Origin: an uncultured archaeon
GTDB taxonomy: Archaea; Iainarchaeota; Iainarchaeia; Iainarchaeales; JAGVWC01
Assembly (NCBI GenBank): GCA_964402015.1
Contig: CAYOAS010000022.1
Span: forward strand, 1 to 12,930
Length of the DNA: 12,930 nt
Direction of reading: 5' to 3'
In this document: positions 383-9,524 of the stretch, in pieces
How the letters are laid out: each line of letters opens with the position of its first letter
Position numbering within the stretch: position 1 is the first letter of the stretch
Program-made: the position numbers and the translations under genes
The notes under the pieces: generated by a model
What the model saw: only the letters and a program-made list of their open reading frames with translations
Databases searched by the model: none
What the model was told of the DNA's origin: nothing

Positions 383-568
383 ATGGATTTTCTTTTGCCT
401 TCGCATATCGTTAACTATTTTAACGTTTCCAAGCACACTAGAACTATGCAAGAGTATAATGTAAAGCATGTTTCCCCTGTTGTTTCGCGGAAAAAATTCC
501 AGGGGCACGTTTATAATGTTACTACCGAAACAGGCAACTTGTTTGTAGAAGACATTTTGGTTCACAAT
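383..568 (+). mobile_element. Orphan intein C-terminal half (IntC-a) fused in frame to the Lon extein. There is an alternative internal start at ATG 446, which would give a 41-aa IntC.
   Basis: [26 protein letters not shown] followed by S at +1 is a canonical block F/G. It resembles the pattern of known short IntC halves such as Neq Pol IntC (...VILYDLSTESGKFYVNGLVLHN). No intein block A or B, and no Lon N-terminus, is present in the 382 nt upstream. That region is A-tract-rich and has stops in all frames. Confidence 0.6.
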
Positions 569-2305
569 TCAGGCGGCCTTGGAACTCCGGCGCACTTGAG
601 GATTGAAGCCGGCTTGATTCACAAAAGTTCCGGTGGCGTGCTATTTTTGGATGAAATTGCTACTCTTTCCCAGAAGGGGCAGCAGGAATTGTTGACAGCA
701 ATGCAGGAAAAAAAATATTCAATTACCGGCCAAAGCGAAATGTCTTCTGGAGCCATGACTAGAACAGAGCTGATTCCTTGTTTTCCGGCTGGAACAATAA
801 TTGCAACTGAAAAAGGCTTTGTTGAAATTGATAAATTTGTGAACGGGCTGTTTGAAAGTCAAGCATGGCAAGTTGGCAAAGAAAATAGTGTGGATTTTTT
901 GGATTTACTGGATTCTATTAAAGTTTGGGTTCCAACAGATAACGGAATTTTTTTAGACAAATTGGAACGAGTTTATAGGAAGCCTTTTTCTGGTAAATTA
1001 ATAAAAATTACTTTTGATGATGGCAGTGAATTATTGGCGACCAAAGAGCATCCAATTAAAACGCCAACGGGTTTTATCCAAGCAAAAGACCTTAAAATCA
1101 GGCAGGCAGTAGAAGCGATTTCACCAATAATTGATGATATGAAAATAATTGAAACATACAATAAAGAAAATCAGCGAGTTGCAAAGGCATATGCTGCTTG
1201 GAAAGCAAACCCATCATTAAAATCCAAAATACTCGGGGTTGATTATAAAACAATCGCTGCTTGGAAAAAAGGAACAGTGCCAAGGACCCTTCGTTGCATT
1301 GATTGGTTGAAAAAAAGAAAATTGCTTCCTTTGCTTTACGAGGATTCTAGATTGGGTCTGATTGCACGAATCAGTGGTGCTTTATTTGGAGACGGGGGTT
1401 TAACAAGAACTGGGTTGTTTTTTGTAACTGATTCAAACAGCAGAATGGACTTGGATGCTTTTAAGTATGATTTGATTAAAACTTTTGGGGACGATTTGGA
1501 ATCAAATTTTGTTTTCAGAAAACACGCTTCAAAAAAAGGGAGCGGTATTGATGTTTCTATGCATAATGCTTTTGTTTCCAGATTTTTTGCTGCGCTTCAG
1601 GTTCCTCGCAATGGCAAGGTAGCACAGCAGTTTGAAGTTCCTGCTTGGGTAAATTCTTCAAATGAAACAAAAAGAGAGTTTTTTTCTGCATTGTTATCCT
1701 GTGAAATGTGCGGCAAAATAAAAAATGCTGGCGGTAAAATATCATTTGTAATGGCAAAGGTTAAAAAATTTGAAAAACAACACATTGCTTTTTTAAATGA
1801 AATAAAAAATTTTTTGGCTGAAAACAAAATAGAGACGAGCAAAATTATTGAAAACAGGAGTTATATGAGAAATAAGACTGGCACGCCAGAAACTGCTGCG
1901 CTTTATTCTTTTAATATTCAGAATAACTGTGGGAATATTGCCCGCTTTATGAATCTGGTTCAGATTTGTTATGCAAGTAACAAAGCGGGTTATATGAAAA
2001 GGCGGTTTGAAGCAGCAGCAATTTACTCTGAAAATTTGGGAGTATTAAAAACAAATAAAGTTAATGCTCTGAAATTGCGGGCAAAGGGTTTAACTATAAA
2101 AGAAATAGGCAATTGCATTAAGCTTTCAAAAAACACTATCCTGAAGACAATTGAGCCGACTTACAATCAGTATTCTTCCATGCACAAAAAAATAGCAGCA
2201 GACCTAATGAAAACCGGCTTGACTGCCAAAAAAGCTGCGCTAAAATTAAAGATGCCATACACTACTTTACTTTATTGGAAAAATAATGGTGAAATGAATG
2301 TTTAA
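383..2305 (+). CDS. lon: Lon (LonB-type) protease fragment 1. It is a fusion of an intein C-terminal half (aa 1-62), the Lon AAA+ Walker-B/sensor-1 segment (aa 63-132), and the N-terminal splicing region plus LAGLIDADG endonuclease of a second intein (aa 133-640).
   Basis: The translation contains SGGLGTPAH...[13 protein letters not shown]...[33 protein letters not shown], which matches the archaeal LonB Walker-B region. The preceding ...[21 protein letters not shown]|S is an intein block F/G ending in His-Asn with Ser at +1. After ...TELIP the sequence [10 protein letters not shown] (intein block A) and ...ATKEHPI (block B, TxxH) follow. The ORF begins after an in-frame TGA at 350-352. The ORF track confirms the frame. 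Confidence 0.75.
569..778 (+). other. lon: Lon extein segment of 70 aa, covering Walker B (VLFLDEI) through the PCDF junction, and bounded by inteins on both sides.
   Basis: This is the aligned LonB motif run. It is interrupted exactly between the P and C of the conserved P-C-D-F(V/I)LVAAGN motif. Confidence 0.7.
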
Positions 2306-2417
2306 CACGACAACAAAAAAGATTGTTTCAATTGAAGAAACAGATTATTCCGGAATGGTTTATAATCTAAAAACAGTTTCTGGCACTTATTTGGCTAATG
2401 GTATTGCTGTTCATAAT
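779..2417 (+). mobile_element. Large intein (intein-b) inserted at the Lon PCDF site. Block A is at 779, block B at about 1040, the LAGLIDADG homing-endonuclease domain at about 1340-1800, HTH-like DNA-binding segments at about 2060-2280, and block F/G at 2350-2417.
   Basis: The intein starts at Cys ([14 protein letters not shown]) and ends [25 protein letters not shown] with Cys at +1 ([10 protein letters not shown]). Its length is 1639 nt, which is not a multiple of 3. The reading frame breaks at 2298-2305, where the gene 1 stop TAA overlaps the gene 2 ATG in ATGAATGTTTAA. The intein is therefore encoded across two ORFs. Confidence 0.75.
1340..1800 (+). other. LAGLIDADG homing-endonuclease domain inside intein-b.
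   Basis: Two LAGLIDADG-type motifs are present. [17 protein letters not shown] lies at nt 1352-1402. [16 protein letters not shown] lies at about nt 1673-1720. They are spaced about 100 aa apart, as in double-motif LAGLIDADG enzymes. Confidence 0.6.
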
Positions 2418-3506
2418 TGTGATTTTGTTCTGGTTGCAGCTGGAAATTATGAAGATTTGAGAAAGGTTCATCCCGCGCTCCGTTCAAGAATCCGCGGTTA
2501 TGGGTATGAGGTTTACATGAACAGTGACATGCCTGATACCCCGGAAAACAGGTTAAAGATTGTAAAATTTGTTGCGCAGGAAATAAAAAAGGACGGAAAA
2601 ATTCCTGCTTTTTCAAGAGAAGCTGTTGAAGAAATAATTTTTGAAGCAAGAAGGCGTGCGGGAAGCAAGAACAAGCTGACTTTGAAATTGCGCGATTTGG
2701 GCGGTCTTGTCCGCGCTGCCGGAGACCTTGCAAAAGAAAAGGGAAAAATTCTTGTAGAGCGCCAGGATGTTTTTGAGGCAAAAATGAGCGCAAGGACATT
2801 GGAGCAGCAGATGGTTGGAAAAATTTTGGAGCACAGGAGAGAATACAATGTTTATTTGACTGAAGGCAGTGCTGTCGGCAGAGTAAATGGCCTGGCTGTT
2901 TCTGGCGACGGGGATGCCGGCCTGGTTTTGCCAATCGAAGCAGAGATTGCACCGGCACAATCGAGCGCAGAGGGAAAAATAATTGCCACTGGAAAGCTTG
3001 GAGAAATTGCAAAAGAGGCAGTGCAAAATGTTTCGGCTCTTGTAAAAAAACTCAGTGGAAAAGACATAAGCAAATTCGATTTGCACATTCAGTTCTTGCA
3101 ATCTTATGAGGGCGTTGAAGGCGATTCTGCAAGCGTTTCTGTTGCAACAGCTGTCATCAGCGCGCTTGAGGGAATTCCGGTAAAGCAATCGCTTGCAATG
3201 ACTGGCTCTTTGAGCGTGCGCGGAGAAGTATTGCCAGTCGGCGGCATTAGTGCAAAAGTCCAGGCTGCAATAAAAGCTGGCTTTAAAGAAGTCATTGTTC
3301 CAAAATCAAATATTGAGGATATTGTTTTGCCGGAAAGCGAATTGAAAAAAATCCGTGTTGTTTCAGTTTCCAACATTTCCGATGTTTTGGATTGCGCATT
3401 TGAAAAATCAAGCCAAAAAATAAAGCTGTTGAAAGACCTGGACAAGCTAGTGAAAATCAATTTGTCAAGAGTAATAGAAAAAACAATAGAAAAAATTTCA
3501 GCCTAA
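2298..3506 (+). CDS. lon: Lon (LonB-type) protease fragment 2. It consists of an intein C-terminal half (aa 1-40, IntC-b) followed by the Lon AAA+ C-terminal subdomain and the Ser-Lys protease domain (aa 41-402).
   Basis: The product starts [40 protein letters not shown]|[10 protein letters not shown]. Downstream are the sensor-2 motif ALRSRI and the protease domain, with catalytic Ser in GDSASVS and Lys in [10 protein letters not shown]. The start overlaps the gene 1 stop by 8 nt. Confidence 0.8.
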
Positions 3507-3674: not shown

Positions 3675-4046
3675 ATGGCTCAAAAAGCTAAGATGTCGAG
3701 ACCATTTCGAAGAGGAGTTGTTTGTCTTAAGAGGGCTTGGCGCGTAATTGTAGGCTCTTACAAGACAGGAAGGGGCACGGGTCGTACTGATGCACTCAAA
3801 GAAGCAGCGCTTGTTGAAATGAAAAAGAAAAAACCTGATTGGGAAAAAATACTTCGTGTCAGAAAAGCAGTGGAAGAGGACATTAAACGCAACGAAGAAT
3901 TTATACGGCAAGTCAGGAAACTAATGAAAACTGCTCAAAAAATAGGCAAACCAGCTGATTCATATGAGGGCTTTATAAAAAAATCGCAAGCAGCCATTTT
4001 GTCCCATAAAAGGTTCTTGCGTAAAATAGGCTGGAGACACAGGTAG
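3675..4046 (+). CDS. Hypothetical small protein of 123 aa, very basic (K/R-rich), with no recognised family.
   Basis: A clean ORF with an ATG start. An AT-rich TATA-like segment (aataataaa) lies about 30 nt upstream. A convergent terminator hairpin lies downstream. Function is not assignable from sequence. Confidence 0.45.
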   Translation: MAQKAKMSRPFRRGVVCLKRAWRVIVGSYKTGRGTGRTDALKEAALVEMKKKKPDWEKILRVRKAVEEDIKRNEEFIRQVRKLMKTAQKIGKPADSYEGFIKKSQAAILSHKRFLRKIGWRHR

Positions 4047-5422: not shown

Positions 5423-5560
5423 ATGGAGAAAACGAGCATTTCTATTTGGAAAGACACAGTAGAAAAAGTTGCTGTTTTGGCTAAAAAAGAAAATCGTAGC
5501 ATATCGGCTCAGATAGATTACATTATACAAAAATATTTTGAAGGACAGGGAAAAAAATGA
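5423..5560 (+). CDS. Ribbon-helix-helix (CopG/Arc/MetJ-type) DNA-binding protein of 45 aa.
   Basis: Translated by hand as MEKTSISIWKDTVEKVAVLAKKENRSISAQIDYIIQKYFEGQGKK. It shows a beta-strand (SISIW), helix 1, an N-R-S turn, then helix 2, which is the classic RHH layout. Its stop TGA overlaps the tnpB start in ATGATGG. It is absent from the ORF track only because it is shorter than 60 aa. Confidence 0.55.
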   Translation: MEKTSISIWKDTVEKVAVLAKKENRSISAQIDYIIQKYFEGQGKK

Positions 5561-6741
5561 TGGCATACAAGTTTCGGCTTTATCCTTCAAAACAACAAGC
5601 ACAGGCATTGTTCAAGACATTCAATTTGTGCAGATTCATATACAACAATCTATTGGAAAAACTGAACAATAGCAAAAAGATTAATAGAAAAGCAATCCAA
5701 CATTTAATTGTTGAATTGAAAAAAGAATATCCTGAACTAAAAACGGTTTATTCAAAAACATTGCAGTATGAATGTTATCGGTTGTTTAGCAATTTGTGTT
5801 CATTATCCCGATTGAAAAAGAAAGGGCAAAAGGTGGGAAAATTGCGTTTCAAGGGAAGAGATTGGTTCAAGACAATCAATTACAATCAAAGCGGTTTCAA
5901 GTTGGAGCAAACAGGAAAACGCTTTGGCAAATTATCTCTTTCAAAAATAGGCAATCTAAACATTCGTTGCCACAGAATAACAAGCGGAAAAATCAAGCAA
6001 ATAACAATCAAGAAAAGCGCAAACAAGTGGTATGCTATTCTAATAACTGATGGAACAAACAATCGCCAATGTGGAACTAGAAAGATTGGCTTGGACTTGG
6101 GAATAATCAATTTTGTTGCAGACAGCAATGGCAACAAAACAAAATCACCATTGTTCTTGAAAAAGAACTTGGCAAAAATCAAGTTGGCACATCAAGATTT
6201 ATCAAGAAAAAAAAGGGGAAGCCAAAACAGAAAAAAGTTAAAACAACATTTAAACAAACTTTATGAAAAGGTTGATGACCAACGAAACGATTTTTTGCAA
6301 AAGCTATCAACAAAAATCGTTTCAGAAAACAAACTAATCTGTATAGAAAAGCTCGTCATCAATAAAATGGTTAACAACAAGAAAAACAAACATTGGAACA
6401 AGCGGAATATGCTTGATTGTTCTTGGGCAACATTTACTTCCCTACTAAAACGCAAGGCTGAAAGTGCTGGTGCAAAAGTAATAGAAGTAAATCCAAAGAA
6501 CACAACAAAAACGTGCAGCAATTGTGGAACTATGCAAGATATTCCATTATCACAGAGAACATACTCTTGTGATTGTGGATTGGAATTGGATAGGGATACA
6601 AATGCCGCTAAAAATATATTGGCTCTGGGACAGGGCTTTGTTGAGAAATTTCCTCTACCTTCCGACAATGTTGGAATGCAAGAACATTCAATGAAACAAG
6701 AAGCCATAACCTCAACACTAAAAGCGTTAGGTTATGAATAG
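5557..6741 (+). CDS. tnpB: IS200/IS605-family TnpB (OrfB), an RNA-guided RuvC-like nuclease.
   Basis: The N-terminus AYKFRLYPSKQQAQALFKTFNLCRFIYNN is the typical OrfB_IS605 start. The RuvC-I motif is IGLDLGI. The RuvC-II motif is LICIEKL. The zinc ribbon is CSNCG...SCDCG. The RuvC-III motif is LDRDTNAAKNI. All catalytic residues are present. Confidence 0.85.
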   Translation: MMAYKFRLYPSKQQAQALFKTFNLCRFIYNNLLEKLNNSKKINRKAIQHLIVELKKEYPELKTVYSKTLQYECYRLFSNLCSLSRLKKKGQKVGKLRFKGRDWFKTINYNQSGFKLEQTGKRFGKLSLSKIGNLNIRCHRITSGKIKQITIKKSANKWYAILITDGTNNRQCGTRKIGLDLGIINFVADSNGNKTKSPLFLKKNLAKIKLAHQDLSRKKRGSQNRKKLKQHLNKLYEKVDDQRNDFLQKLSTKIVSENKLICIEKLVINKMVNNKKNKHWNKRNMLDCSWATFTSLLKRKAESAGAKVIEVNPKNTTKTCSNCGTMQDIPLSQRTYSCDCGLELDRDTNAAKNILALGQGFVEKFPLPSDNVGMQEHSMKQEAITSTLKALGYE

Positions 6742-6830
6742 TTCACATAATTATTCAAAGCAATGTTATATATACATTAATTCCATATCAAAAATATAAT
6801 AGTTATGATAATATCTGGCAAAAAGCAAAA
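6600..6830 (+). ncRNA. Predicted omega-RNA (right-end element RNA) of TnpB. It would overlap the 3' end of tnpB and extend past the right end into a guide segment.
   Basis: By established knowledge of IS200/IS605 TnpB systems, the omega-RNA scaffold is encoded at the tnpB 3' end and right end. Here that region contains the right-end hairpin. No direct structural evidence can be obtained by eye. Confidence 0.25.
6704..6736. repeat. Right-end subterminal hairpin of the IS, related to the left-end hairpin.
   Basis: ccataacct (6704-6712) and aggttatg (6729-6736) are reverse complements around a 16-nt loop. The shared core is ATAACCT/AGGTTAT. Confidence 0.45.
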
Positions 6831-6842
6831 AAGTGGTAATTG

Positions 6843-7838
6843 ATGGCAAAACGATTGGGCCAACTGGAAAGCTATAAGGTAAAACAATGGATTTTTGTCC
6901 TTATTGCAATACTGGTTTGTGCAATAATTTATCTTTCCATGGCAAACCAGGAAACAATTGTCCCGCTTGTTCTGGTTCTTGCACTTTCGGCAATAGCTCT
7001 TTTTTTAGTAAAACAATACGATTTTTTGCTTACACTAAAGGAATACGAACGCGCTGTAATTTACCGCTTTGGCCATGTGAACAGGGTTGGCGGGCCAGGC
7101 TGGACTTTAATGTTGCCACTGATTGAATCTTTCAAGCTCGTTGATTTGCGCACAAGCACTATCGACATTCCCGAACAAGAAGTAATAACCAAAGACAAGA
7201 TTGTAACAAAGGTTGACGCAATTGTTTATTTGTACGTAAAGCCTGACAGCAGTTCTGTAACGCACAGCGTTATTGAAATTGATGATTACAGAAAGGCAGC
7301 GGAATTGTTTGTTCTTTCTTCAATCCGCGATGTTGGCGGAACAATGACCTCGAGCGAACTGATTTCAAACACAGCAGAGCTTAACACAAAAGTAAAAGAA
7401 AAAGTTTCCCAGATTGCCGACAGTTGGGGCGTTACAATTGAAAGCGTTGAAATCAGCAGCATAAAATTGCCAGAAACAGTTGCAAGCGCAATGCACGAGC
7501 AAAAAGCAGCAGAGCAAAAAAAGCTCGCGCGAATGGAATCAGCGCTCGCAAACCAAGCAGAAATAGACGCAGTAAGGACAGCAGCAGACCAGTTAAGCGA
7601 CAAGGCGCTTGCCTATTATTACATTCGCGCTTTGGAAAAGCTTGGAGAAGGGCCTTCAACAAAATTCATTTTTCCAATGGAATTAAGCAAGCTTGCTGAA
7701 CAGCTTGCGGGCAGAGTAAAAAGCGGTGTTTCATCTGGAGATTCTGAAATGGAAAAATTGTTCAAAAAATATGCGCCAGCAATAAAAGCCTTTGTTGAAA
7801 ACGAAAAAAAACAAAAAGGCAACGCAAAAAAGCGATGA
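6843..7838 (+). CDS. SPFH/band-7 (stomatin/prohibitin-like) membrane protein.
   Basis: There is an N-terminal TM helix. It is followed by YERAVIYRFGHVNRVGGPGWTLMLPLIESFKLVDLRTSTIDIPEQEVITKDKIVTKVDAIVYLYV, a canonical SPFH core. The C-terminus is coiled-coil-like and Ala/Glu/Lys-rich. The track start at 6840 is a TTG. The ATG at 6843 is preferred. Confidence 0.8.
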   Translation: MAKRLGQLESYKVKQWIFVLIAILVCAIIYLSMANQETIVPLVLVLALSAIALFLVKQYDFLLTLKEYERAVIYRFGHVNRVGGPGWTLMLPLIESFKLVDLRTSTIDIPEQEVITKDKIVTKVDAIVYLYVKPDSSSVTHSVIEIDDYRKAAELFVLSSIRDVGGTMTSSELISNTAELNTKVKEKVSQIADSWGVTIESVEISSIKLPETVASAMHEQKAAEQKKLARMESALANQAEIDAVRTAADQLSDKALAYYYIRALEKLGEGPSTKFIFPMELSKLAEQLAGRVKSGVSSGDSEMEKLFKKYAPAIKAFVENEKKQKGNAKKR

Positions 7839-7850
7839 ATTTGCGCGACA

Positions 7851-7857
7851 GATTCTT
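7851..7857 (+). terminator. T7 run 13 nt downstream of the SPFH stop. It is an archaeal-type oligo-T terminator candidate.
   Basis: ttttttt lies immediately after the stop at 7836-7838. A 7-bp hairpin, aagcaat/attgctt, lies at 7931-7951 between the convergent genes. Confidence 0.35.
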
Positions 7858-7983
7858 TTTTTAGCCAATGCAATTAAGCAGTTCACTAAAGAACAATGGC
7901 TTAACGCTCTAGGCTTTAAGCTGAAGATAAAAGCAATATTGATTATTGCTTCTAAAACGCCGTGGAATTTATTCTATGGTTCT

Positions 7984-8823
7984 TCACACGTTGAGAATAA
8001 GGTATGCCTCAATTATTGCTGCTGCGAATAATACAATGAATGCTGTCACGACAAGCACTGCTGCATCCTTTAAGCAGTTTTCAAAAATGTTTTTTTTGTA
8101 TTTTCTCGTTATGCCAACGCTGATTATGCCGCCGGCAATTGCGCCAATAAAATAAGCTGTTATTTCCGGAATGCCGTGCGGCAGCAATCCAATCGCGCGC
8201 ATGCTTGCCCTCACGAGGTCTGTTGCAAGCAATTCTTTTCCAATTACAAGGCCAATCACTGAAGCATTCCATGCTATGAGAAAAATCGCGCCAACGCCAT
8301 ATGCAAAGCTGAAGAGTATTGCCCATAATAATACCATTGCGTTGTTGTAGAAAATGCAGTTAATTGCAAGGCCAAAAATGTCAGAGCTCTTGCACGCTGT
8401 TGCTAAAGCGCTTGTTTGTGTCGCGTTCCCGCGCAAATTGGTTATCTGAAGCCATGTTGTTTCCTGTTCCTTGAAAGCAAGGTCGCGTTGTGGTGCGGGC
8501 AAATAATAATACCAAAAAGCATAGCAGACAATCAAGCCAATGAAAAACCAGCTGTAGACTTCAATTATGTCAAAATGCCTTTCGAGGAACGTTAACGGGG
8601 GACCCGGGCATTTTTCCTCTTCTTTTTCTTCTTTGATAAAAATAGCGTAAAGCACTGGCACTATTGCCACTGTAACAAAAGCAATGCCTAAAACGCTTGC
8701 TGCGTTTGGAAAGGTTTGCAGGCTCGCGAAGATGCCGACAGTGCACAATACAAAGGCATTGACAAGCATTGCAATTGGGTGCCTTCTTGCAAAATTTGCC
8801 TTTAAAACAGATTCCAAAACCAT
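7984..8823 (-). CDS. SpoIIM/DUF95-family integral membrane protein.
   Basis: It is a multi-TM protein. Its C-terminal motif ...AIGLLPHGIPEITAYFIGAIAGGIIS resembles the hG.pE motif of stage II sporulation protein M-like proteins (DUF95). It has an ATG start at 8823. Confidence 0.45.
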   Translation of the reverse strand: MVLESVLKANFARRHPIAMLVNAFVLCTVGIFASLQTFPNAASVLGIAFVTVAIVPVLYAIFIKEEKEEEKCPGPPLTFLERHFDIIEVYSWFFIGLIVCYAFWYYYLPAPQRDLAFKEQETTWLQITNLRGNATQTSALATACKSSDIFGLAINCIFYNNAMVLLWAILFSFAYGVGAIFLIAWNASVIGLVIGKELLATDLVRASMRAIGLLPHGIPEITAYFIGAIAGGIISVGITRKYKKNIFENCLKDAAVLVVTAFIVLFAAAIIEAYLILNV

Positions 8824-8891
8824 TTTTTGCCCTTCCGCATAAACCAGTGTTTTTTTATAGTTTTCCTATCCTAAAAAATATGGAAAAGAAG

Positions 8892-8899
8892 TATTTAAA
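8892..8899 (+). promoter_or_regulatory. TATA-box-like element (tatttaaa) about 40 nt upstream of csl4, in a divergent intergenic region.
   Basis: It is an AT-rich octamer resembling the archaeal TATA consensus, at a suitable distance from the ATG at 8940. It has not been checked for a BRE. Confidence 0.3.
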
Positions 8900-8939
8900 C
8901 CCGCTCTTTTTTGCTGTTGTTTGAAAAAGGTTTTTTTTT

Positions 8940-9524
8940 ATGAGTCAAGACAAGGAAAGCGAAAGCAAAATGGTTTTTCCAGGCACATTCCTCGGGGCAG
9001 AAGAAGAATATCTTGCCGGAAAGAATGCTGGTGTTGATGATTATGGCAATATTGTCGCCTGCACTGTTGGAAAAAAGGAAACAATCGCGCGCAACCGCAG
9101 CATTGAAATAAAAAAGCCCGGCAAGAACGCTTTGCCTTTCGAGCCAAATGATATTATCCTTGGCAGGATTTCTCTTGTAAAAGAGAACAGTGCAATGGTT
9201 GAAATTGACAGCGCAGAGCGCAACGGAATGGAAAAAAAGATTTTGCGCGGAGTTGCGGCAATAATGATCAGAATGGTTGACGCTGGTTTTGTAAGGCAAT
9301 TGTCGGACAAATTTCGCATTGGCGATATTGTAAAGGCAAAGATTGTTTCAGTTAGTTCCTGTGGCATCGATTGCAGCACTGCTGACGACAGGGAATTTGG
9401 GGTAATAAAGGCTTTCTGCAAAAAATGCAGGCAGCCGTTGCAATTGTTTGGAATGCAGTTGAAATGCCTTAATTGTGGCAATACTGAAACGCGGAAGATT
9501 TCAAGCGATTATGTTTTGAAATAA
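8940..9524 (+). CDS. csl4: Exosome complex RNA-binding protein Csl4 (S1 domain plus C-terminal zinc ribbon).
   Basis: The N-terminus is VFPGTFLGAEEEYLAGKNAGVDDYGNIVA. An S1-like segment is GDIVKAKIVSV. The C-terminus is CKKCRQPL...LKCLNCGNTETRK (CxxC...CxxC). This is the archaeal Csl4 architecture. Confidence 0.7.
   Translation: MSQDKESESKMVFPGTFLGAEEEYLAGKNAGVDDYGNIVACTVGKKETIARNRSIEIKKPGKNALPFEPNDIILGRISLVKENSAMVEIDSAERNGMEKKILRGVAAIMIRMVDAGFVRQLSDKFRIGDIVKAKIVSVSSCGIDCSTADDREFGVIKAFCKKCRQPLQLFGMQLKCLNCGNTETRKISSDYVLK

Follow-up and report, generated by a model that had tools for sequence, protein, structure and literature searches.

A likely natural break in an endonuclease-bearing intein of archaeal LonB, encoded by two overlapping genes

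The stretch of DNA analysed here (the window, 12,930 nucleotides in all) carries two adjacent genes that share one intein, intein-b, and at their junction a single T separates two reading frames from one. The original prediction allowed three explanations, these being a genuine split intein, a recent frameshift that inactivated a cis-splicing intein, and a homopolymer or assembly error. The question is which of them accounts for the site. We consider it likely that the site is the natural break of a genuinely split, LAGLIDADG-containing intein-b in LonB, encoded as two overlapping ORFs, and that LonB probably needs joining after translation.

The junction and the parts of intein-b

All of the features described lie on the forward strand. 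Gene 1 terminates as ...GEMNV-TAA (last codons TGG AAA AAT AAT GGT GAA ATG AAT GTT TAA), with its stop at 2303-2305. The ATG of gene 2 (2298-2300) is in the next frame relative to gene 1, and the gene 2 frame is closed directly 5' of this ATG by TGA 2295-2297. Within this junction (2295-2305) the two genes overlap by 8 nt, ATGTTTAA (2298-2305). The original prediction had the TAA, ATG and TGA at these positions, in agreement with the sequence, and it had the correct overlap length; the 12-mer in its title is too long, as it also takes in the preceding ATGA. Its estimate of an intein of about 546 aa after removal of a single T was borne out on recomputation: without one T of the TTT at 2301-2303, a single intein of 508 + 38 = 546 aa results. 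The complete cassette (779-2417) has 1639 nt, or 3x546 + 1. With the one T deleted, the virtual intein can be aligned over its full length to a contiguous intein of an unrelated host protein, and in this alignment the break lies past the last helix, in a linker that is not conserved.

A Shine-Dalgarno-like GGTGA (2288-2292) is located 5 nt 5' of the gene 2 ATG, inside the poorly conserved gene 1 tail. Its duplex with the anti-SD sequence has an energy of -7.4 kcal/mol, within the top 1.4% of background windows. Such a motif precedes the IntC-b ATG in nine of 11 loci, while the encoded tail is unconserved; the loci are phylogenetically related, so that this statistic overstates their independence. 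A scan for sigma-70 promoters and terminators was set aside as not meaningful for an archaeon.

The two genes are portions of one archaeal LonB (Pfam AAA_32/Sigma54_activat, Intein_splicing, LonB_AAA-LID and Lon_C). Gene 1 holds a middle extein of 70 aa (569-778; SGGLGTP...Walker...MTRTELIP), which matches AAA_32/Sigma54_activat and shares 66-90% identity with the corresponding stretch of 80 LonB loci. Gene 2 holds the C-extein (2418-3506), with Cys+1, the sensor-1 strand and the Lon protease domain; it matches LonB_AAA-LID and Lon_C (E 1e-34), and the Lon dyad is intact, with Ser in GDSAS and Lys in GGISAK. The AAA+ module (Walker B and sensor), the LID and the Ser-Lys domain of Lon_C that characterise LonB are thus all present. 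Intein-b occupies site b, ..VP/CDFVL (a slash marks the insertion point here and below), before the Cys of the LonB sensor-1 strand. The N-terminal segment of LonB, with Walker A and the membrane anchor, is absent from the window, the 12.9-kb contig ending before it; relatives encode it upstream, in an ORF of its own that ends in IntN-a.

IntN-b and IntC-b are found in separate ORFs and each is joined to an extein, the arrangement that defines a split intein. IntN-b, the N-terminal HINT half (779-1102), has Cys1 at 779-781 and the block B residues T220 and H223 at 1040-1051. C133, T220 and H223 are invariant in an alignment of 22 sequences, which provides the N-terminal nucleophile and the block B TxxH. 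Its profile matches in the PDB are the MJ0781, PI-PkoII and VMA inteins, and its AF2 model is β-rich. Translationally fused to it are LAGLIDADG homing endonuclease and HTH domains (1103-2302), a module of about 400 aa, so that intein-b is not an endonuclease-free mini-intein of the kind expected for natural split inteins. Pfam alone left the endonuclease unnamed, and it was recognised from its invariant motifs and a fold search. The motif acids D337 (1391-1393, in GALFGDGG) and E441 (1703-1705, in LLSCEMCG) are both invariant, and Foldseek matches it to TliVMA, PI-PkoII and I-DmoI; it therefore has two LAGLIDADG motifs with their acids and the αββαββα fold. The last conserved residue of gene 1 is W632 (2276-2278). 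IntC-b (2298-2417) has 40 aa and ends in His-Asn. It has 40-41 aa in all 11 loci, where the border with the extein reads ...VHN/CDFVL or ...THN/CDFIL and His-Asn and Cys+1 are invariant. Cys1, TxxH, HN, Cys+1, both LAGLIDADG acids and the Lon Ser and Lys have thus all been kept.

The entire cassette is precisely missing from the allele of a close relative, L090. Both flanks are 84% nt-identical to those of the window, CCT/TGC is contiguous, and the intein-less allele (P0371/L090) reads ...MTRTEPVP-CDFVLVGAGN, as expected for a precise in-frame insertion. An allele this similar that lacks exactly the cassette implies that the element was gained or lost as a unit. The GC content of the cassette is 0.35, compared with 0.43-0.48 for the exteins. 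The intein-less L090 junction, ACAGAGCCAGTGCCT/TGCGATTTCGTTTTGG, is a candidate target of the predicted intein-b nuclease.

The break in related loci

Neither gene 1 nor gene 2 had an exact match in a contig index, and relatives were reached through homologues. When genomes were scanned with an alignment of all of gene 1, the scan favoured extein patterns and found intein-b in 3 of 80 LonB loci; a metagenome scan with an intein-only alignment gave six more. The sequences compared are metagenome assemblies throughout, and the titles of the loci with intein-b name Micrarchaeota, Diapherotrites, Nanoarchaeia, unclassified archaea and metagenomes.

Intein-b is split in all 11 distinct loci, which span several DPANN lineages and include the window, with the nuclease part 38-100% identical. 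In each of them the gene 1 stop lies 4-14 codons past the same invariant Trp, and the ATG overlaps the stop. Similarly, 21 gene 1 homologues (36-72% identity) all terminate 4-14 residues beyond W632. The overlap has 8 nt in the window and L081 (both ATGTTTAA), L082 (ATGAATAA) and L084 (ATGCCTGA), 4 nt in L083, 1 nt (TAATG or TGATG) in L001, L002, L085 and L086, 11 nt in L088 and 14 nt in L003, and gene 2 is in frame +1 or +2, depending on the locus. The comparison of orthologous loci, to which the original prediction had pointed, therefore found the overlap conserved: L081 (GCA_043809245.1), an independent genome with 72% protein identity, has an overlap identical to that of the window, and in the other nine loci, down to 38% identity, the break has the same position, while the sequence of the overlap and the frame vary. 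Recurrence of the break in all 11 distinct related loci is more than chance.

Searches of 5.8 billion proteins and of 1.84 billion cluster representatives gave no unsplit intein-b. Four of these representatives align to the C-terminus of the query, and the ends of all four are no more than 6 aa away from it. When the first 100 aa of gene 2 served as query in a word-indexed protein search, the matches were short fragments only. All LonB proteins of about 1100 aa that were retrieved carry their intein at site a.

Both sides of the break are under purifying selection. Between the window and L081, dN/dS is 0.22 for IntN-b, 0.21 for the endonuclease, 0.08 for IntC-b and 0.10 for the C-extein, these values being approximate because dS is near saturation.

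Alternatives and the proposed assembly

The conserved break and the selection on both halves lead us to reject the inactivating frameshift and the assembly error that the original prediction had offered, and together with the L081 overlap they support its remaining option, a genuine split. Had a recent frameshift inactivated a cis-splicing intein, lonB would be a decaying pseudogene. A one-nucleotide change does restore a single ORF, DPANN genomes are reductive, and the window contains the degraded tail of an endonuclease gene upstream. However, the break is shared by all 11 loci despite changes in overlap length and frame, dN/dS has been 0.08-0.22 on both sides since the window and L081 diverged, intein, nuclease and protease all retain their catalytic residues, and the protein and cluster-representative searches revealed no allele resembling an unsplit ancestor, which makes decay very unlikely. 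It is extremely improbable that the site really has two T, which would make the intein contiguous. The error would have arisen in a short T run (TTT) of a metagenome assembly, but three-T runs are not error-prone on short-read platforms, L081 was assembled independently and has the same overlap, the 8-nt overlaps of L082 and L084 differ in sequence, and the 1-, 4-, 11- and 14-nt overlaps of other clades are beyond any single-base error.

Programmed ribosomal frameshifting, such as a prfB-like +1 shift at GUU UAA C with GGTGA upstream, would also yield a contiguous cis intein. A +1 shift at the stop in the window indeed fuses the frames, and the SD-like element is upstream of it; its spacing of 7 nt to GTT is nevertheless unlike the prfB arrangement. 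There is no conserved slippery sequence, as junction sequence, overlap length and frame offset differ between clades, relatives would require +1 in some clades and -1 or +2 in others, and at several loci the ATG merely abuts the stop (TAATG). Every locus moreover has an ATG and an IntC of canonical length, which frameshifting does not need, and we give this mechanism a very small chance. It is also conceivable, though unlikely, that the split is real and the halves do not splice, acting instead as non-covalent association domains for the LonB fragments, as in the NrdA fragments of phage Aeh1 (PMC3045599). For genes broken by endonuclease insertions, non-covalent assembly of the products is on record (PMC3045599), and a bulky endonuclease on IntN might impede splicing. 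Against this, Cys1, the block B Thr and His, His-Asn and Cys+1 are invariant across loci and would not be needed for association alone, and an insert of about 550 aa in the AAA+ core before the sensor-1 strand would probably be disruptive.

Gene 1 encodes IntC-a, the 70-aa middle extein, IntN-b and the complete endonuclease/HTH module, and its stop falls in the unconserved linker just 5' of the last HINT strands; gene 2 starts inside the gene 1 stop region with IntC-b, of canonical length at 40 aa, to which the C-extein is joined. For a genuinely split intein-b, the following assembly is proposed. The two genes would be co-transcribed, and ATG 2298 may be reached by reinitiation after termination of gene 1 or by ribosome binding at GGTGA. 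IntN-b with its endonuclease and IntC-b would then associate and rebuild the HINT fold, and the rebuilt intein-b would trans-splice the middle extein to the C-extein. Split intein-a would add the N-terminal piece of LonB, which is not on the contig, and active LonB would be the product of three polypeptides. The freed heterodimer of IntN-endonuclease and IntC may still be a homing endonuclease that moves the cassette. Trans-splicing of LonB is argued from the conserved catalytic residues and purifying selection; a nuclease of this size on IntN is unlike the characterised natural split inteins, and efficient association of the halves is therefore not guaranteed.

Relation to known inteins and to intein-a

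Few natural split inteins are known, and they are valued for protein ligation. In reviews they figure as endonuclease-free mini-inteins, born by breaking a mini-intein, and characterised examples are called HEN-less (PMC6801210, PMC8966425). Relative to these, what is new in intein-b is that the LAGLIDADG nuclease stays fused to IntN. In the cyanobacterial DnaE and Nanoarchaeum equitans PolB inteins, as here, IntN and IntC are on separate polypeptides and the split is conserved across a lineage. Those are mini-inteins without endonuclease, with genes far apart in the genome (PMC7765530, PMC6801210), whereas intein-b keeps its nuclease and its genes overlap; trans-splicing has been demonstrated for them, and for intein-b it is predicted from sequence. 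Among artificially split inteins, bifunctional ones can retain trans-splicing when the cut is close to the boundary of the endonuclease (Southworth et al., 1998, cited in PMC8966425).

Intein-b closely resembles the fractured genes, in which a free-standing homing endonuclease gene lies between the halves of a split intein (Dassa et al., 2009, PMC2677866); at 15 of 26 loci in that study, the IntC gene begins 6-69 bp before the endonuclease coding region ends. As in these, the halves of intein-b are on adjacent same-strand genes of one host gene, the break is at the endonuclease insertion site, and the 3' end of the endonuclease overlaps the IntC start, the overlap being 8 nt for the window and 1-14 nt for its relatives. 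Site a of L081 has exactly the three-ORF form, with IntN, endonuclease and IntC in succession. At site b, however, the endonuclease is fused to IntN and not free-standing, and it is an intein-type LAGLIDADG enzyme, not GIY-YIG or Vsr-like. The hosts differ as well, being phage-like marine DNA-metabolism genes in the one case and a cellular DPANN archaeal lonB in the other, and LonB has two such breaks within one protein.

Contiguous LonB inteins are known from Euryarchaeota (Thermococcales and Archaeoglobales), where 10 are listed (Novikova et al., 2016, PMC4760082). They share the host protein and a related LAGLIDADG/HTH endonuclease (23-31% identity to that of intein-b), and occupy site a (DPLQ/SGGLGTP), which is also used in gene 1 of the window. 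They are single-ORF cis inteins, whereas intein-b is at a second site, where only split forms were found. The IntC-X-IntN topology of gene 1 resembles SICLOPPS, and its AF2 model matches SICLOPPS crystal structures; unlike in engineered SICLOPPS and split constructs, the IntC and IntN of gene 1 are from two different inteins and should not pair. Our literature search found nothing specific on split LonB inteins or on split inteins in DPANN.

The window and its relatives thus appear to present a conserved natural split with a homing endonuclease on IntN and overlapping genes. If this is correct, the arrangement offers a testable intermediate for the origin of split inteins, and it raises the question of whether an intein homes while split. 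We suggest tentatively, as a possibility short of an even chance, that intein-b and its paralogue intein-a form an undescribed class of mobile intein that persists and spreads while split, with the LAGLIDADG endonuclease covalently on IntN and the IntN-endonuclease/IntC heterodimer as the active homing enzyme after trans-splicing, and that LonB of many DPANN archaea is routinely made as three polypeptides joined by two mutually orthogonal split inteins. Such a class would be a natural intermediate, and would mean that full-length inteins, and not just mini-inteins, can give rise to split ones directly. The intein-a and intein-b loci are a possible source of new, possibly orthogonal, split-intein pairs. 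There is also a consequence for annotation, as these LonB genes now carry the labels "sigma-54-interacting regulator" or "AAA ATPase, partial".

The split reading of the original prediction stood, although it had overlooked the endonuclease kept on the N-terminal half, the splitting of intein-a as well, and the probable start of gene 1. Gene 1 probably starts at ATG 446 (M22) and not at ATG 383 of the mechanical ORF, judging from relatives and from a near-identical allele of 473 aa (P0371) that begins MQEYDVKH. From this start, IntC-a (446-568) is a 41-aa C-terminal fragment of split intein-a, followed by Ser+1. IntC-a has a separate ORF in about 44 species-level loci, where a stop 36-116 codons upstream closes the frame and a Met precedes HN by about 40 aa. 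As intein-a is also split, LonB is probably assembled from three polypeptides, and two related split inteins would imply a three-piece assembly of an AAA+ protease in archaea with reduced genomes. In L081 the order at site a is N-extein-IntN-a, free-standing endonuclease gene and gene 1, and in both L081 and L090 the site a endonuclease is free-standing and yet LAGLIDADG. The window retains at 132-209 a C-terminal tail remnant of such a gene of intein-a, broken by stops and a frameshift. By tblastn it is 61.5% identical over 26 aa (E 2e-5) to the free-standing endonuclease of L081, and its counterpart in L090 is an intact ORF of 47 aa.

Organisation of the split LonB and conservation of the break

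A single archaeal LonB protease covers both ORFs in Pfam, gene 1 (383..2305, forward strand) having AAA_32/Sigma54_activat and Intein_splicing domains, and gene 2 (2298..3506, forward strand) having Intein_splicing, LonB_AAA-LID and Lon_C domains. Comparison with relatives divides gene 1 into four parts: the C-terminal half of the upstream intein (IntC-a), followed by Ser; a 70-aa middle extein with Walker B; the N-terminal half of intein-b (IntN-b), which starts C/FPAGT and has TKEH as block B; and a LAGLIDADG endonuclease and HTH region of about 400 aa. Gene 2 comprises a 40-aa IntC-b, then Cys, then a C-extein made up of the sensor-1 strand, LID domain and Ser-Lys protease domain. The AlphaFold model of gene 1 (22 homologues, pLDDT 78) matches the endonuclease-containing inteins TliVMA and PI-PkoII, and also I-DmoI, and the LAGLIDADG acidic residues D337 and E441 are both invariant in the homologue alignment.

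The junction is as the original prediction described it. Gene 1 stops at TAA 2303-2305, gene 2 begins ATG TTT AAC at 2298 in the adjacent frame, immediately preceded in that frame by TGA 2295-2297, and the overlap is 8 nt (ATGTTTAA). Virtual deletion of one T of 2301-2303 does, as had been claimed, give a continuous intein-b of 546 aa, the cassette (779-2417) being 1639 nt, or 3x546 + 1.

The break in intein-b is conserved. In a protein-level search gene 1 had 21 homologues (36-72% identity, 584-811 aa), all of which terminate 4-14 residues beyond the invariant Trp of PYTT(L/V)LYWK. DNA was compared for ten further distinct loci beyond the window, drawn from GTDB species genomes (L001-L003), encoding contigs (L081-L083) and metagenomes (L084-L089), and every locus has a stop of the IntN-b-nuclease ORF and an overlapping ATG that opens a 40-41-aa IntC-b. 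The overlap is 8 nt in the window and L081 (both ATGTTTAA), L082 (ATGAATAA) and L084 (ATGCCTGA), 4 nt in L083, 1 nt (TAATG/TGATG) in L001, L002, L085 and L086, 11 nt in L088 and 14 nt in L003/L089; the frame of gene 2 relative to gene 1 varies between clades, being +1 or +2. No unsplit intein-b was found: all the ~1100-aa LonBs retrieved have their intein at DPLQ/SGGLGTP instead, and the four sequences that reach the C-terminus of the intein-b query in an exhaustive HMMER search of 1.84 billion cluster representatives all stop ≤6 residues from it.

Conserved overlap in relatives was the check named in the original prediction, and among its three options the result supports a real split intein. 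The conservation of the break contradicts both a recent inactivating frameshift and an assembly error; an independently assembled genome with exactly the same overlap also speaks against the latter. Programmed frameshifting, which would fuse the two ORFs, is rejected because the loci share neither a conserved slippery site nor a fixed frame relation. The only serious rival is non-covalent assembly of the pieces without splicing, and this is disfavoured by the invariance of the catalytic residues (Cys1, block B Thr/His, terminal His-Asn and Cys+1). It is therefore highly probable, judged from sequence, that intein-b is a genuine, conserved and functional split intein encoded by overlapping genes.

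Probable function of the split intein

Between the window and L081, a relative with 72% protein identity (GCA_043809245.1) and the identical split, dN/dS is 0.22 for IntN-b, 0.21 for the nuclease, 0.08 for IntC-b and 0.10 for the C-extein, these values being approximate with dS near saturation. Even so, purifying selection has clearly acted on all parts from the origin of the split onwards. Beyond the conserved Trp the protein sequence is not conserved, and 9 of 11 loci have a Shine-Dalgarno-like GGTGA/GGAGG 5-8 nt 5' of the IntC-b ATG. Against background windows these motifs rank in the top ≤9% (combined p about 1e-6, the loci not being independent), and selection for them would be expected if gene 2 is translated on its own. 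Over its full span, Cys1 to HN-Cys+1, the virtual one-T-deleted intein can be aligned (E 4e-28) with a contiguous intein whose host protein is unrelated and topoisomerase-like. In this alignment the last helix and the first IntC strand are joined by an unconserved linker, and the break lies within it, at the canonical endonuclease-insertion / split site. The invariant residues, dN/dS, Shine-Dalgarno-like motifs and linker-placed break argue for function rather than decay.

The locus as observed consists of two overlapping ORFs, conserved, under selection and cassette-like. We propose that the genes are co-transcribed, and that gene 2 would be initiated at ATG 2298 by coupling or by the Shine-Dalgarno motif. 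IntN-b with its homing endonuclease would then associate with IntC-b, and the middle extein would be trans-spliced to the C-extein; with the same process at site a, three polypeptides would be joined into mature LonB. Once released, the heterodimer may still have nuclease activity. Were IntC-a able to pair with IntN-b, the middle extein would be cyclised; presumably, therefore, the two inteins have to be orthogonal. The IntC-extein-IntN order is the topology of engineered SICLOPPS peptide cyclisation, and SICLOPPS crystal structures are matched by the gene 1 model (Foldseek, TM about 0.7 on target). In public annotations 'sigma 54-interacting transcriptional regulator' is the name given to the IntC-a/extein/IntN-b-HEG proteins, and 'AAA family ATPase, partial' the one given to the IntC-b proteins (P0002, P0006, P0008, P0009, P0121), a systematic misannotation of split LonB pieces.

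Intein-a and the N-terminal piece

Intein-a is also split. Gene 1 begins with a C-terminal fragment of it (383-568), and no LonB N-terminus is found upstream in the window. The window is a whole contig of 12,930 nt, and the N-terminal piece must be located outside it. Gene 1 is likely to start at ATG 446, not ATG 383, since the near-identical P0371 starts MQEYDVKH and other relatives start M-x5, about 41 aa before HN. About 44 of 80 species-level loci have an in-frame stop 36-116 codons before the SGGLGTP extein and a Met about 40 residues before HN; about 10 loci are contiguous. L081, syntenic with the window (DUF373, Band_7, SpoIIM, PCNA), has the full order N-extein-IntN-a (330 aa), free-standing LAGLIDADG endonuclease (324 aa), gene 1, gene 2. 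Comparison with L081 and L090 (the lonB locus encoding P0371) identifies a degraded tail of such an endonuclease at 132-209; this remnant at the contig start (1-260; NISVNQNFPFRYATDKKERMK) is frameshifted relative to the intact 47-aa ORF of L090 (1335-1478).

Dozens of free-standing endonucleases of the intein-b nuclease family start exactly at the nuclease-domain boundary, and breakage at both domain edges seems to be a habit of this LAGLIDADG/HTH family. The boundary-starting endonucleases have 300-400 aa and begin M..IL.E.DII.TYS (for example P0231, P0232, P0237, P0242 and L081 8892-9866). In L083 the N-terminal LonB piece (6669-9077) has, besides IntN-a, a contiguous LAGLIDADG intein in Walker A (GLPGTGK/C...SHN/S), giving this LonB three inteins in total.

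Possible mobility, known systems and neighbouring genes

The P0371/L090 allele precisely lacks the 1639-nt cassette, with 84% nucleotide identity on both flanks, and its C-extein product shares a 90%-identity protein cluster with gene 2. GC is 0.35 in the cassette against 0.43-0.48 in the exteins (569-778 and 2418-3503), and of the 80 species loci that the genome scan retained, only 3 have intein-b, these being spread over several DPANN lineages. This exact absence, low GC and sparse spread fits a mobile element that comes and goes whole in its split state. Apparent dS between the window and L081, near saturation, is 0.8-1.1 for intein-b and 1.7-3.4 for the exteins, tentatively hinting that intein-b is younger than its host gene or was transferred independently. 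The codons flanking the insertion differ (EPVP in L090 2234-3655, ELIP in window 446-3506), a possible trace of co-conversion or target-site immunity.

Among described arrangements, the "fractured gene" (Dassa et al. 2009, PMC2677866) comes closest: in it, adjacent split-intein halves have a free-standing endonuclease between them, and the 3' end of the endonuclease gene shares 6-69 bp with the IntC gene. Here, in contrast, the nuclease, a LAGLIDADG enzyme, is fused to IntN; the host protein is a cellular protease of archaea, and it is broken twice. Natural split inteins, according to reviews and structural papers, are mini-inteins without endonuclease that presumably originated from mini-inteins (PMC6801210, PMC8966425). 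For LonB, the reported inteins are all contiguous and euryarchaeal (PMC4760082), and the literature searched, which covered few subscription journals, held no description of split LonB inteins or DPANN split inteins.

Between the DUF373 and Band_7 genes lies a TnpB/IS605 OrfB-type gene (5557-6741, forward strand; OrfB_IS605, Cas12f1-like_TNB, HTH_OrfB_IS605). It is absent at that position from the syntenic L081, L082 and L083, and is thus a lineage-specific insertion in the window. lonB and the DUF373 gene are separated by a basic 123-aa ORF with no significant Pfam match (3675-4046, forward strand); at its position L081 has a 311-aa ORF of unrelated length.
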